DNA from: Escherichia coli
GTDB taxonomy: Bacteria; Pseudomonadota; Gammaproteobacteria; Enterobacterales; Enterobacteriaceae
Reading direction: 5' to 3' (one strand)
Assembly (NCBI RefSeq): GCF_003019035.1
Contig: NZ_CP027448.1
Length of the DNA: 64,000 nucleotides
The position numbers are program-made. This document shows, piece by piece, positions 55,701 to 61,700 of the stretch; the first letter of the stretch is position 1, and each line of letters opens with the position of its first letter.

Positions 55701-58700
55701 CTCTGTTACTGATGAATCAGAATTTTGGCAATGGCATGAATGCGGTGGATAACGGACAGGTTATAAGTCAGGGGGTACTGGCTGACGGTCGGGTGATGAA
55801 TCTGGCTGCGGCCTATGCTTCAGCGGTATCGGATTTTGAACTGCGGTTGCCAGCAGAGGGTACACCTGCAGTATGGCAGGCGGGGCTGAATGTGACGGTT
55901 ACGGTACAGTGATGGTTGCAGGGATATAAGGAGAGAAGAGAAATGAAAAAGGTGACGTTGTTTCTGTTTGCTGCCAGCCTCCTGCCTTCCTGTGTACTGG
56001 CCTGGAACACGCCGGGAGAAGATTTCAGCGGAGAGCTTAATCTGGAAGGGGCAGTGACCAGCACCCATAATCCGTGGGTGTGGAAAGTCGGACAGGGAAA
56101 TGAAGGCCTGGAGGTTAAACAGAGCCGCGGTGTTCGTGACGGTGAGCAGGCAATTCCGGTCGCACTGCCGGCGATGACCGTTTTACTGGGAAAAACCACC
56201 CTGACCACACCGGCAGGACGTGAGGGGCTTTCTCCCCGTGTCAGTTACGGAAAGGGTACTGAGGGATTTTCGCTTGAATGGACAGCACCAGGCGTGGCGG
56301 AGGTGACGCTGCCTGTCACCGGAGATAATAATGCCCGGGCAGGAAAATTTGTTTTCAGAATGCAGGTAACGGGAGGGTTGCGCTATGTGCAGAACGGACA
56401 GCCCATATATGCCGGCGTATATGACGACCTGAATGCGAATGGTCTGCCAGGTGAAAGTACGATGATGAAGACTTCTGAGACTCCGGGTGTTCTGCAGAAT
56501 ATGTTCAGTGATGAGGGACCGTCATGGCTACACACAATGACAGTGACAACTTCCGTAGGAGTGAGTCACTTCAGCGATGCTTCTTTGCGTCAGGTTGAAG
56601 GTGTATATGGCGCACAGACAGTAGCAGGTAGTGGAGAATTATGCCTGAATGGGACACCGCCTGTGCACTGGCGAGTGTCATTGCCTGTGAGTATTGAGTA
56701 TCAGTGATTTATTTGTACAACGCTTGTTACTTAATGGAGTAACGACGAATCACTTAATAACTCATTTTTGTAACGAGCTCATGGACGACTGGTGGTGATA
56801 ATCATACCGGATCTGGTTAACCTATCCAGTATAAGAGGGACGAATAAAGTAACGGGGAGGGGGATTGAATTTGTTCATGTGTGTGATGTTCAATTCATCC
56901 TTTTCTGTTATCAAGCCAGTCCATAATTACTGTCAAATAGAACGGACGGGGCAAGTATTCATTGTTATTTTATCTGCTCTGACAAGAGTAAGGCTAAATG
57001 TTGCAAACCAGACTGACACTGAGATGTGATATTAAAATATTTGAATATAATGAGGGGTAAATGGAAACGGATATTGATGAGCGAATTAGTGAGTTTCTGG
57101 AAAATCAGAAAAAACATTTCAGTAAAACACTCTTTAGTACCCGTGAAATAGCCGATGCTGTCGGGCTAACGATATATCAGGCCAGAGGATGTCTGGAAGT
57201 TTCACCGTCCTTATCTGTACAGGAGCAATACTGTCCGGCAGCGTGCTCAGGCTGTCCTGGAACATTACCAGTTTGCACGGACACAGCCGGAACCGGTAAG
57301 GCGTTATCTGCAGGTTTATCGGGAGACTCCGCTGGTCACTACAGAAGGGCGTGGCGGAGAACAGCTATCTGTAACCTGTACCCCTTGTGGGTTTGACCGT
57401 GAAGGCGAACTGATGCTGGTTCTGTATTGTGACGGTACGCCTGTTATCCGGATATCGTTTTCATTCATTCGCTGGCGGGGAAGTTTCACTTTGTTTATTG
57501 GTGGCTTGCAGGGGCCTCGGGAATACGGGGCACATACAATTCGTCACACCACTCGCGTTTGTCACGGCCTCTTTCCGCGCAGGGTGCTGTGTGAGGCCGT
57601 TGCTGCGCTGGCGGAGGTGTGCCGGCTGTATACCATCACTGCGGTCAGTGAAGAGCAGCATGTTTTGCGACACGGTAGGTATGCGGCGCGTAAACAGGGG
57701 CGGTTTGTGGCGCATTATAGTGAGTGTTGGATATCTGTAGGAGGACAACACGATGGCAACGGTTTTTACCAATTGCCAGTGCCTTTACCACGTAAAGGTT
57801 CGGAAGATATCCCAGTCCGCAAGCGGGCGGAATACCGCAGACGGAATGCGCTGCTGGACAGTATCCGTTTAGGTGTCAGGGCTGCTATGGGCATTCAGTG
57901 AGTGCAGAACCGAATAGCAAAGCGCCTAAAGACTACAATGTTCATTGATGTTTAACTCAATGAACAGGTTGCGATAATTGCCAGACTGATTTACTGCATA
58001 ACATGCAGGCATAATATTGCTGGGATATATGTTTGGAACTATAGAAAAAATCAAAACGGGTGATGATGTTCTGTCTGCCGTTATTCACCGTGTTGAATGG
58101 CTGTTTGATACATTCTCTTCTGTCTGCCTGTCTTTTTCCGGAGGAAAAGATTCCACAGTGCTTTTCCATCTTGTGGCTGATGTGGCCCGCAGGAAGAACC
58201 GTCGTTTCTCTGTATTGTTCATTGACTGGGAAGCCCAGTATCAGTGCACCATTGAACATATTCAGAAAATGCGGGAAATGTACCGGGATGTGACGGATAC
58301 CTTTTACTGGGTGGCACTTCCCCTGACCACGGTTAACGGTGTCTCGCAGTTTCAGCCGGAATGGATATGCTGGGAACCCGGTGTGACATGGGTTCGCCAG
58401 CCACCGGAAGAAGCTATTACTGATATGGAGTATTTCCCCTTTTATCAGTATGCCATGACATTTGAAGAATTTGTTCCCGCATTTTCTTCCTGGTTTGCCA
58501 GTAACAGGTGTGGAGTGGCAGTGCTGACCGGTGTCCGAGCAGATGAATCCCTCAACCGCTTTATGGGACTGGTGTCCCAGCGCAAACTGAGATATGCCGA
58601 TGATAAACCCTGGACTACGGCATCGCCTGAAGGGTTTTACTACACCATGTATCCGTTGTATGACTGGAAAGCCCGCGATATATGGATATATAACGCCAGG

Positions 58701-61700
58701 ACCCGTGCCATCTACAATCCCCTGTATGACCTGATGTACCGCGCTGGCGTGCCGTTACGTAACATGCGTGTCTGTGAACCCTTTGGTCCGGAACAGCGCA
58801 AGGGACTATGGCTTTATCATGTTCTGGAGCCGGAAACGTGGGGCCGAATGTGTGAGAGGGTGTCCGGTGCTGCCAGCGGAGCACTTTATGCCAACGAAAG
58901 CGGTGCCTATTTTGCCCTGCGTAAACGTATATCAAAACCAGCCCATCATACCTGGCGCAGCTATGCGATGTTCCTGCTGGATGTGATGCCGGAAAGAACG
59001 GCAGAACATTACCGTAACAAGATAGCTATCTACCTGCGCTGGTATCAGACCCGGGGATTCCCGGATGACATCCCGGATGAACAGGAAAATGACCTGGGGG
59101 GCCGGGATATCCCGTCCTGGCGACGTATCTGTAAGACACTAATAAAGAATGATTTCTGGTGCCGGACCCTCTCCTTCAGTCCGAACAAACCCCGGCACTA
59201 CGAACGTTACCTGCAGCGTATGAAAGAAAGGAGAAAGGAATGGGGGATTCTGTGACACCGGAGGTGGAAGTATTGAGCAACATGATTCGTCAGTATTTCA
59301 GTCAAGTGCGAACTGATTCAGAAACCATACAGGCTCTGAATCATCTGCGCAGAGTGCTTCATGAGGTCAGTCCTTTTGCACAGGAGCCTGTGGACTGCGT
59401 ACTGTGGGTGAAAGCGGATGAGGTGGTGGCCAACGATTATAATCCTAATGTCATGGCGCCAGGTGAGAAGAAGTTACTCAAACAGTCTCTGGAGAAAGAC
59501 GGTTTCACACAACCAGTGGTTGTGTCGGAGGAGAAGAACCATTACCTCGTGGTGGATGGTTTTCATCGTCAGCTGCTGGGCAGGGAAGCAGACACAGGGA
59601 AACGCTTTAAGGGCTGGCTACCTGTAGCCTGTATTAATCCGGAGAGAAAGGGACAGGCATCACGTATTGCTGCGACCATTCGACATAACCGGGCCAGGGG
59701 GAAAAATCAGATAACCTCAATGTCTGATATTGTCAGAGACCTTTCGCGCCTGGGCTGGTCAGATGAACGAATTGGCACTGAGCTGGGTATGGACCGGGAT
59801 GAAGTGCTGAGACTGAAGCAGATTAGCGGGCTGATAGAATTGTTTCAGGAGGAGGATTTCAGCCCTGCGTGGACGGTCCGTTAAATAGCAGTTCAGCAAC
59901 GGCACCGGTCCAGCGACCCGGCGTGGCACGGCTCAGCTATTGCCTGTGCGTCGTTATAATCATTTTTCTGACGCCGCTGATAAGCTTTAACATGTTGTGC
60001 CGGAAGCAATATTACGTCATGGTCGAGTTTCCTGATTTCCCGGACCCAGTAATGGGATGCCCCGCAAGCCTCCATAGCAACAGTCATTTTAGGCTGTTGC
60101 ACCAGCCAGTTAAGCAGTTGATTGCGAGAAAGTTTGGCCTTTCCTGCGGGGTTGCCATGAGCATTGATACTGAAAAGATAAAAGTTCGTTTTAGCCAGCT
60201 CGATGCCGGTGATTTTCTGTTCAGACATGGTATCCCTCTTATTTTTGTGGTTAAAGTTTATCCTTCATGGCGCAATTGAAGGCTGCCGTGAAGGAGGGGG
60301 AAGACCATCTCATCGCTTACGCATCAGTACACGCTCAAAGCCCTCGATCACATTTTCGCGTCCTCCCGGCAAGCAATCAACTAAGCCACTGCCTTGCCCC
60401 CGGGAATGAAACCTAAGTAAGGTGCACTTTTTATGTCTATAGCAAAGCATTCTCCTGAGTTACGATTCAAGATCGGTAACAATTGCTCTGGTCCGCACAT
60501 CCCATATACAGCGAATGCCGATGCAAACAGCGCCCGTAACATTTTAGCAGCAGAGCACGCCATTCTTGCCTGTGGATGGTGCAATCAGGCCGCAGTTGAA
60601 GCAGGAATTCTCATTCTTCATGGCGTGAAGGAGGTCAAATGTATTATACAGCCCCCTTCAGGGGGCTGTATTTGTAAGCATTTTGTTGTCTGCAGTTACC
60701 TGTGCCAGGTAAACTGCGGATGGGGACGTTGTTCTGTATTCAAAAATAATGAAGGCAAACGAATAATATCACCATTGATATCGGCAATACCTCTGACATT
60801 TTGCAAAAAAAGAATTGTGTTATGTTTAACGTTGTTTTGCTGATAAATGCAAACCGAAAAAAACTTTCCTAACTCATCCAGTGACAAAACGTCATTATAT
60901 TTTATATTATGATGCTCTAATGGGATAAGCAAGAAGTCATTTTTATTTTTTCGCAATGAAATCCCTGTGTAATTTTCACTCAAAATTAACAAATTACCTT
61001 TTGTTACATAATGAAGCATACTATAATGCAAATAATTTATTTTTATATCTATATGTTCTTTTATACCGTTAAACTCTTTTTCTGCGCAAAATTCAGTTCT
61101 CCCCTTCGCGCACCAATAAAATAAGAAGCCGGTAACAGTAACAAACAAACTAACACTTAGTATGAAAAAATTACGCATTTTATTGATACTCACAAGAATA
61201 TTTATCACAGAATATACCCTCCCCCCCTTGCTCAAGGAATATTGCTGTCATCCCTTTTTCTGGCGGAGGGGTATTGAAATCGAAGTTAGAAAAAATATCA
61301 GTATCATTTATTTTTCTTGTCCTTATATCGCTTGCATTATATAAAAACAAAAAAACAGAAAAAACCATAAGTAACACATATATACCACATAAACAATATC
61401 GATATACAGGGATATAGATATTGTTTGAATGGGGGGCTTCCGTTTGTTTATCAACGGAAGCGGATAATTCATCTAATGACTCAGTGATCGTTATTTCAAT
61501 ATCAAGCAAAAAAGCATATCCTTCACCTTTATAAGTTTTTATCACTTCTTTTGATGATAGTTTTTTGAAAATATCTCTGATGTGTTTTATTGCAACAGGA
61601 AGCGATGATGCAGAAACCATTCTGCCCGGCCAGCAGTGACAAACCAGCTCATCATGAGAGATTATGGTTCCTTTATTTTTATAAAGGTATTCAATCAATA

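Follow-up and report, generated by a model that had tools for sequence, protein, structure and literature searches.

A stretch of 64,000 nucleotides (nt) from an Escherichia coli plasmid (contig NZ_CP027448.1, assembly GCF_003019035.1; hereafter the window) carries an overlapping pair of genes, ibrA and ibrB, that belong to the IbrA/IbrB family, called YbdN/YbdM in E. coli K-12. An earlier sequence-only reading had placed an ibrAB-type pair here. Open reading frame (ORF) calling recovers both ORFs at the coordinates given then (58017..59255 and 59159..59884, forward strand), and PP-loop, PAPS_reduct, DUF3440 and ParB-type domains are present in the products. The features of the pair are the following.

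58029..59255, forward strand: ibrA-like gene, 408 amino acids (aa); PP-loop ATP-pyrophosphatase or phosphoadenosine phosphosulfate (PAPS)-reductase-like fold, with a family-specific insert and DUF3440
58137..58154, forward strand: PP-loop of IbrA, S37-G-G-K-D-S42, read from the sequence as the ATP-binding, pyrophosphate-releasing loop
59240..59255, forward strand: 16-nt overlap of the 3' end of ibrA with the start of ibrB; the ibrA stop codon is at 59253-59255
59240..59884, forward strand: ibrB-like gene, 214 aa; N-terminal helical hairpin, ParB/Srx N-domain and helix-turn-helix
59555..59569, forward strand: IbrB motif D106-G-F-H-R110, in which D106, G107 and R110 are invariant and H109 is at least 90% conserved
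59681..59701, forward strand: IbrB motif R148-H-N-R-A-R-G154, in which R148, N150, R151, A152 and G154 are invariant

The likely start of ibrA is the ATG at 58029, which corresponds to the start assigned by the Prokaryotic Genome Annotation Pipeline (PGAP) in the near-identical plasmid p3RM8082; an alternative TTG start lies upstream, at 58017. For ibrB the most plausible start is the ATG at 59240, with a GGAG (59230-59233) six bases earlier, and the overlap of the two genes may reflect translational coupling. Neither gene has internal stops, and dN/dS relative to four other E. coli copies is 0.05-0.16. Thus, ibrA and ibrB are not a chance pair of ORFs; they are intact and under purifying selection. 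The locus is best explained as a working copy of this two-gene IbrA/IbrB (YbdN/YbdM) module, which apparently originates from phages and mobile elements. It is one more ordinary copy of an already named family, and the interest lies in that uncharacterized family rather than in this copy.

The profile searches proposed in the sequence-only reading match IbrA to the Pfam PAPS_reduct domain, in two halves with an insert between them, and to DUF3440 (1.8e-24), and match IbrB weakly to ParB_N (E = 0.03). IbrA also matches phrog_2302 (3.6e-83). In an alignment of 37 diverse IbrA homologues with 27-58% identity, residues G39, K40, D41 and S42 of the PP-loop are invariant, as are R21, D66, E68, T74, W115, W121, R170, E173, S174, P209, D217, Y233, R247 and R277. 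No cysteine is invariant or nearly so among these homologues, and even the cysteine of the MRVCEPFG motif is variably C, N, D, A or G. Because the family has no conserved cysteine, thiosulfonate chemistry of the CysH type and an Fe-S cluster of the DndC or adenosine phosphosulfate (APS) reductase type are excluded.

The sequence-only reading had named clear orthology to CysH as a result that would speak against it. Scores against the curated models for CysH and PAPS or APS reductases are far below their cut-offs (NF002537, 33.6 bits vs 154; TIGR02057, 29.5 vs 254; TIGR00434, 26.6 vs 165; TIGR02055, 23.3 vs 235), and neither the C-terminal catalytic cysteine (ECGLH type) nor the Fe-S cysteines of CysH are conserved among the 37 homologues, so IbrA is not a CysH orthologue. 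The full ATP-type PP-loop of IbrA is not found in CysH. CysD and FMN adenylyltransferase (FMNAT), by comparison, are PP-loop enzymes that perform ATP-dependent adenylyl transfer. By analogy with these enzymes, adenylyl transfer seems to fit a full PP-loop without cysteine better than a reductase does. The predicted structure of IbrA is confident (predicted local distance difference test, pLDDT, 90.7). When it is compared with solved structures, ~170 of the 408 residues align, and the Trp-rich insert and DUF3440 lie outside the alignments. A search of the PDB by sequence gave nothing informative and no close sequence relative for either IbrA or IbrB.

Several unusually long IbrA homologues were inspected. 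One of 631 aa (P0257) has an intein-like insertion of ~220 residues exactly inside the invariant YN-xx-YD motif; the insertion begins with Cys and ends ...SSN|S. None of the long hits inspected is an IbrA-IbrB fusion of the Rosetta-stone kind: apart from the intein of P0257, the length of P0173 is a frameshift artefact, that of P0210 and P0226 comes from internal insertions, and P0122 has an additional N-terminal domain.

IbrB matches a phage family of ParB-like proteins, phrog_2159, at 4.1e-84, and its close homologues are named "IbrB-like domain-containing protein" in RefSeq. The Aravind group has reportedly placed IbrB in the ParB/Srx superfamily and connected it with IbrA. The AlphaFold2 model (pLDDT 84) matches Noc, ParB with CDP or CTPgS, and KorB in Foldseek with E-values of 2e-7 to 5e-7 over 155-175 columns; matches to sulfiredoxin and serine kinases are at ~1e-2. 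Conservation is unusually high, with a mean column identity of 45% across phyla. The motifs NxYNPN, LLxxSIxxDGxTQP, VDGFHR and IRHNRARG are invariant, and all three family motifs (NxYNPN, DGFHR and RHNRARG) are present in the plasmid protein. Because a box I-like segment, LLxxSIxxDGxTQPIVV, precedes DGFHR, the latter appears to occupy the position of ParB box II (GERR) or of the Srx motif GCHR, that is, of the nucleotide-binding motif. By the same motif order, RHNRARG would stand at the position of ParB box III (ENLQR). The helix-turn-helix segment LGMDxDEVLRLKQ is nearly invariant from E. coli to viruses of Asgard archaea. Because this segment is near-invariant across domains of life, recognition of lineage-specific operators appears disfavored.

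Clustered at 50% identity, the IbrA family falls into 1835 clusters (E<1e-3), of which 316 are retained at E<1e-30. A survey with one genome per species yielded 80 loci, and a viral survey yielded 80 more from IMG/VR, giving 160 related loci. The genome loci come from Enterobacterales, Lentisphaerae, Armatimonadota, Verrucomicrobia, Bacteroidota, Clostridia, Tenericutes, Alphaproteobacteria, Helicobacter, Desulfobacteraceae, Actinobacteria and metagenome-assembled genomes of Asgard archaea. An IbrB-like ORF lies directly downstream of IbrA on the same strand in every one of the 80 genome loci, usually overlapping it; overlaps, or gaps of at most 15 nt, are the rule. Both genes also occur, in either order, in 76 of the 80 viral loci. 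The pair is therefore co-conserved; a lack of co-conservation was part of what the sequence-only reading would have counted against its proposal.

Many loci carry additional genes. An SNF2-related helicase of ~415 aa (Pfam SNF2-rel_dom and Helicase_C; phrog_62) is encoded directly upstream in 21 of the 80 genome loci. An upstream ORF cluster of the size and position of this helicase is found in 19 of the 80 viral loci, and its representative has SNF2-type motifs, as read without a profile search of its own; 8 more viral loci have another helicase-like protein. In Flavobacterium phage FCV-1, too, a phrog_62 helicase is encoded ahead of the pair, and in Streptococcus phage PY1 one is present there in split form. 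Between helicase and ibrA, 11 genome loci have an ORF of ~138 aa, one member of which matches a phage acetyltransferase family (6e-11); another, the Bacteroidota-type representative, has no PHROG or Pfam match. A GNAT acetyltransferase (phrog_1249, 4.9e-13) adjoins the pair in 7 viral loci. In a Ralstonia mutant, IbrAB and a gene with an N-acetyltransferase domain are both among nine up-regulated genes. Beyond IbrA, IbrB, the helicase, the small upstream ORF or GNAT, and genes of the enterobacterial ybdO region, no ORF family recurs in the genome and viral loci.

IbrA homologues are found in 224 phage records, including phages of Flavobacterium, Mycobacterium, Streptococcus, Arthrobacter, Bacillus, Lactobacillus, Listeria and Faecalibacterium. 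The order is IbrA (gp3), IbrB (gp4) and terminase (gp5) in mycobacteriophage Phaedrus, and helicase, IbrB and IbrA in FCV-1. Recurrent neighbors in phages are NinB/Orf, single-stranded DNA-binding protein, RecE-like exonuclease, Erf, NinG/Rap, HNH nuclease and resolvase, a set that constitutes the replication and recombination module of phages. In viruses of Heimdallarchaea, IbrA and IbrB have likewise been noted, with an origin in bacteriophages (PMC8813620).

Two variations were seen among the viral loci. IbrB is 311-416 aa long in 21 of them (L120, L123-L133, L135, L138, L140, L141, L143, L145, L147, L151 and L158; for example, L133:5823-6983), where it carries an extra C-terminal domain of ~170 aa that is rich in Cys and His and has conserved DKWEC, WxHSCEHYLTN and NRIAWLGQA; Pfam and PHROG searches of this domain gave no match. 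In seven others (L094, L098, L101, L105, L114, L116 and L146), a protein of ~135 aa (phrog_26647) is encoded just upstream of ibrA. The same protein is fused to the N terminus of IbrA in P0122, which constitutes a Rosetta-stone link to a fourth component.

Within E. coli, at least 80% of the pair is present in 2031 of 5426 complete genomes, at up to 15 places per genome. Most copies are chromosomal, with 80-90% nucleotide identity, and more than a third of complete genomes have an extra copy besides the ybdNM paralogues. Their contexts include an O157 island, beside a PerC-family regulator, a remnant of an asn-tRNA island, and prophages. Because homology among the copies starts a few codons into ibrA and stops at the ibrB stop codon, the mobile unit is the two genes alone. 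In an E. coli prophage and phage PhiR5_2 (loci L004 and L006), the pair lies between Ant antirepressor genes and genes for a Panacea-domain protein and a very large LPD38 "polyvalent" protein; judged from these genes, the surroundings appear to be an accessory or counter-defense neighborhood.

The comparison of identities covered copies from other strains and K-12: other chromosomal and prophage copies are ~92% (IbrA) and 86-92% (IbrB) identical in protein sequence to the plasmid copy, the PhiR5_2 gene annotated as IbrA is 91.6% identical (tblastn), and K-12 YbdN and YbdM are 58% and 57% identical to IbrA and IbrB. The IbrAB island of ECOR-9 and K-12 ybdNM have the same two-gene architecture, order and overlap as the plasmid pair. 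However, the plasmid copy differs from the ECOR-9 type in its setting: it is carried by an IncF virulence plasmid, where a K88-like fimbrial operon and a VirK-like gene are its neighbors, and not by a chromosomal island or prophage. It also lacks a nearby eib gene, and it lacks the LysR regulator YbdO/CitR that is present at K-12 ybdNM and represses those genes (PMC9068703).

Taken together, these data suggest that IbrA and IbrB act as an obligately paired, two-component enzyme system that belongs to mobile elements and whose accessory genes and neighbors all concern double-stranded DNA. We lean, with some doubt, toward a reading in which IbrB is a ParB-like, DNA-bound partner of IbrA, IbrA modifies DNA as an ATP-dependent adenylylating enzyme, and regulation of the immunoglobulin-binding Eib proteins is secondary. 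According to this proposal, IbrB, with its nucleotide-binding N-domain and helix-turn-helix, would bind double-stranded DNA and recruit or activate IbrA. IbrA, as a member of the PAPS-reductase/CysD/FMN-adenylyltransferase branch, would use ATP, release pyrophosphate and adenylylate a group of the DNA, which might be a base carbonyl or a phosphate. The adenylylated group would then be substituted or retained, yielding a covalent DNA modification. In many relatives the SNF2-type translocase could supply movement along DNA and the GNAT acyltransferase may elaborate the product, both being optional. Prophage eib genes would then be activated secondarily, through an altered state of the DNA or nucleoid, and their activation would not be the primary function. 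The sequence-only reading had likewise suggested a nucleic-acid-directed module with an indirect regulatory phenotype. The strict pairing, the SNF2 and GNAT association and the phage replication and recombination context give this idea comparative support; the modification itself, DNA as its substrate, its chemistry and its connection with the Eib phenotype are what we infer. In its broadest form, the proposal that IbrAB/YbdNM is a previously uncharacterized, widespread DNA-modification or adenylylation system of phages and mobile elements, with a ParB-like guide, a cysteine-free PP-loop adenylyltransferase and an Eib phenotype that is an epigenetic or nucleoid side effect, is tentative and somewhat more doubtful.

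Several points weigh against a DNA-modifying function. The phenotype of IbrAB described by Sandt et al. in 2002, which we know through citing sources, is reportedly transcriptional, namely activation of eib expression, and it is to our knowledge the only experimental phenotype of the pair. The searchable literature on the pair consists of annotation-level mentions and reports neither a modified nucleoside nor an in vitro activity for any family member. IbrB ends ~30 residues after the helix-turn-helix and so lacks the C-terminal dimerization domain of clamp-forming ParB proteins, and no conserved palindromic (parS-like) loading site was found in or around the module in 41 dereplicated loci, which is a weak negative. 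Among the related loci, no donor-supplying enzyme, such as an amidotransferase or desulfurase, is consistently linked to the pair. No nuclease partner recurs in the 160 loci, and therefore the pair is not restriction-modification-like. Neither the helicase nor the GNAT gene accompanies the E. coli copies. YbdM was called "completely uncharacterized" in 2022 (PMC8764527).

Other readings account for part of these observations. IbrB might be a ParB-type transcription factor or anti-silencer, similar to VirB or KorB, that derepresses acquired genes silenced by H-NS, for example eib and possibly the fimbrial operon, with IbrA in an accessory role, as supplier or sensor of a nucleotide ligand, and no modification of DNA. 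This would fit the activation of eib that is reported for the pair, the resemblance of the IbrB fold to KorB, a repressor of the ParB family, besides ParB and Noc, and the presence of a helix-turn-helix. It would also fit the co-induction of ibrB and the adjacent PerC-family regulator gene when Shiga toxin-producing E. coli contacts host cells, the position of the pair beside a fimbrial operon with which it travels on many plasmids, and the control of K-12 ybdNM itself by a LysR/H-NS-type circuit. However, near-invariance of the helix-turn-helix and retention of an obligate PP-loop partner with an intact catalytic site, from one bacterial phylum to another and in lytic phages, temperate phages and Asgard viruses alike, are not what a host-specific regulator would lead one to expect. 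The association with SNF2 helicase and phage recombination genes would be unexplained, and no promoter, operator or target gene travels with the two-gene cassette. We consider this explanation unlikely. Less likely again is that the module acts on RNA, such as a tRNA base in the manner of TilS, TtcA or ThiI, or on protein, by self- or partner-adenylylation or by base-conjugation as in the Cap9-CdnD entry. A combination of GNAT, helicase and ATP is indeed known from the tRNA acetylase TmcA, but the partner here is a ParB-like protein with a helix-turn-helix whose structural relatives bind double-stranded DNA, the accessory helicase is of the SNF2 type, a family of double-stranded DNA translocases, and the phage neighbors are DNA replication and recombination genes. 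No tRNA-binding domain (THUMP, TilS C-terminal) was detected in the Pfam search.

A role in anti-phage defense, abortive infection or a toxin-antitoxin pair, for example through nucleotide depletion by a ParB/Srx NTPase, is improbable. It would be consistent with the location of the cassette in islands, prophages and plasmids, with the presence of ParB/Srx proteins in Dnd, Dpd and GmrSD-type defense contexts, and with three listings: a PAPS reductase and nucleoid protein pair among PANGU-like candidate systems, ParB plus DUF3440 as a pseudo-toxin-antitoxin pair in TASmania, and the assignment of Listeria lmo1309/1310 as toxin-antitoxin by guilt by association. The sequence-only reading had also raised the anti-phage possibility, but nothing points to it. 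The module is largely phage-borne and is abundant in phages, including ones reported to lack integrase or lysogeny (F. columnare phage FCL-2), no PADLOC model matches past the PP-loop, and the neighbors of the pair in the 160 loci include no recurrent effector nuclease or toxin. Overexpression of YbdM costs only ~10% in growth, and its deletion is nearly neutral (PMC8764527). Finally, "phosphoadenosine phosphosulfate reductase" is the product name in RefSeq and PHROGs, the fold of IbrA resembles CysH, and virome papers treat such genes as sulfur "auxiliary metabolic genes." A CysH-type role in sulfur assimilation is nonetheless effectively refuted by scores of 23-34 bits against cut-offs of 154-254, the cysteine-free family, the PP-loop type, ~240 extra residues in the insert and DUF3440, and the obligate ParB partner; there is also no cys-regulon context in the window or in the near-identical plasmid.

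The label "PAPS reductase" is thus almost certainly wrong for this family, and the labels "co-activator of prophage gene expression" and "partition protein" are probably incomplete. The family is large, spans phages of many phyla and Asgard viruses, and includes two y-genes of E. coli K-12. If the pair does modify DNA, this would be new chemistry for phage and plasmid epigenetics and would explain a 20-year-old Eib activation phenotype. Hundreds of phage "PAPS reductase" genes would have been misread, and the tallies of sulfur auxiliary metabolic genes in viruses would have to be corrected. Because E. coli holds a silent core copy as well as mobile copies, the question is directly testable with standard genetics and nucleoside mass spectrometry.

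The plasmid around the pair is a large virulence plasmid of the IncF type from bovine or farm E. coli, with many insertion sequence (IS) elements and an IncFII RepA end. It also encodes a KatG/KatP-like catalase, an S6-peptidase autotransporter of the SPATE (serine protease autotransporters of Enterobacteriaceae) type, and EAL and GGDEF proteins. The gene order is K88/F4-like fimbrial operon, VirK/YbjX (DUF535)-like gene, ibrA, ibrB and truncated IS110 transposase, and the following features accompany the pair.

49567..56707, forward strand: F4/K88-like (fae) chaperone-usher fimbrial operon; ORFs, with annotation transferred from p3RM8082 (99.2% identical)
57176..57901, forward strand: VirK/YbjX (DUF535)-family gene, the upstream neighbor; 100% identical to p3RM8082, phrog_35383 at 7.7e-43
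57939..57966, no strand assigned: perfect 10-bp inverted repeat in the virK-ibrA spacer, TGTTCATTGA / 8-nt spacer / TCAATGAACA
59893..60228, reverse strand: truncated IS110-family transposase, the downstream neighbor; NCBIfam NF033542 at 1.5e-25, below the cut-off

The fimbrial operon and the IS110 fragment named in the sequence-only reading are therefore both in place, and its statement that the window has no eib-like gene holds as well: in 1-49500, the ten ORFs that reach 280 aa or more all encode classical autotransporters, KatG, EAL/GGDEF proteins, a heptosyltransferase or transposases, and 49500-64000 has no Eib-like ORF. Thus the window and the annotated near-identical plasmids have no gene for an Eib-like trimeric autotransporter. 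The block from the fimbrial operon through virK and ibrAB to IS110 recurs on many plasmids, one of them from E. albertii, with 88-99% identity, and faeD/E/F/H/I are annotated there. The IS110 fragment spans positions 2-110 of the 343-position profile, its N-terminal third, and is annotated likewise in p3RM8082. The VirK/YbjX-like gene is apparently split over two frames (57061-57396 and 57176/57413-57901), or truncated, and may be a frameshifted pseudogene; PGAP calls a partial ORF and a 241-aa VirK/YbjX family protein in p3RM8082, which is identical there. The inverted repeat is confined to this plasmid lineage, lies outside the homology with chromosomal ibrAB copies, and is not followed by a T-run; it could be an operator or a hairpin. 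Scans of 56700-60400 for promoters and terminators gave no signals above shuffled expectation. In the 11.3-kb block shared with p3RM8082, 68 of the 92 mismatches fall within ibrAB, in two patches, with the VirK flank 100% identical. This concentration suggests gene conversion or patchy recombination with other ibrAB copies.

Three further observations concern the rest of the window. At 60696-61836 (reverse strand), a low-GC pair of ORFs (0.32-0.39) encodes a winged-helix protein with an OmpR/PhoB-type DNA-binding domain and a 179-aa protein. These two proteins resemble fimbrial regulators of the PsaE/PsaF-MyfF type, which in related plasmids are annotated next to the fae operon; here the IS110 fragment stands between their genes and the operon. 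An Rfam match to the Hfq-binding small RNA isrN (86 bits; gathering score 44) lies at 26583-26710 (reverse strand). At 20892-25609 (reverse strand), an AIDA-I/Ag43-like autotransporter with strand-loop-strand repeats is encoded directly downstream of an O-heptosyltransferase of the Aah/TibC family.

Membership of IbrAB in the Dnd/Ssp, BREX or Dpd systems, to which the sequence-only reading had pointed, is unsupported: PADLOC matches are weak and at the level of the PP-loop, there is no conserved cysteine, and partner genes of these systems do not recur. The PADLOC DndC model matches IbrA at E = 2.8e-4 (18 bits), with no dndA/dndD/dndE or sspABCD genes in the window flanks and no such cluster recurring in the 160 loci. 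BrxP of BREX type 4 matches at 1e-7 over IbrA residues 26-96 only, of a profile of 779 positions, and no BREX genes (pglZ/brxC/brxL) are near the pair in the window or the genome loci. No Dpd partner DpdA, of the tRNA-guanine transglycosylase (TGT) family, is among the recurrent neighbors of the 160 loci or the annotated window neighbors, as judged without a TGT-specific profile search. Of the features of a partition ParB of the ParABS type, the N-domain and helix-turn-helix are present, but there is no adjacent ParA, no C-terminal dimerization domain and no conserved palindrome (the last a weak negative).

As to individual components, the best structural matches to IbrB are the CTP-dependent ParB/Spo0J, Noc and KorB proteins, with VirB by analogy, which share the N-domain, the helix-turn-helix and box I/II/III-like motifs. 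IbrB differs from them in that DGFHR replaces GERR, there is no ParA partner, and long forms have an extra N-terminal helical hairpin. On the side of IbrA, FMN adenylyltransferase (the PAPS domain of FAD synthase) and CysD act on small molecules and have neither a ParB partner nor DUF3440. For the pair as a whole, DndB-DndC joins a ParB/Srx-superfamily protein to a PP-loop ATP pyrophosphatase that resembles PAPS reductase and has DNA as its target (PMC10853773), as IbrB is paired with IbrA. However, IbrA lacks the Fe-S cysteines and the sulfur-relay cysteine dyad of DndC and has DUF3440 and a Trp-rich insert instead. In Dpd, the ParB-like NTPase DpdB assists the DNA-modifying DpdA, and helicases belong to the larger system (PMC12839542); the enzyme partner in Ibr, by contrast, is adenylyltransferase-like with a PP-loop, and neither a TGT homologue, as judged from the recurrent neighbors, nor preQ0 pathway genes accompany it. 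Phages and plasmids also have fusions of a ParB N-domain to a DNA methyltransferase (phrog_498, which IbrB matches at 3e-7), in which the ParB N-domain is likewise coupled to a DNA-modifying module. IbrA and IbrB are coupled by operon and not by fusion, with PP-loop ATP chemistry in place of methylation from S-adenosylmethionine. By analogy of mechanism, then, IbrAB appears to resemble most closely these three pairings of a ParB/Srx protein with DNA modification, namely DndB-DndC, DpdB-DpdA and the phage ParB-methyltransferase fusions.

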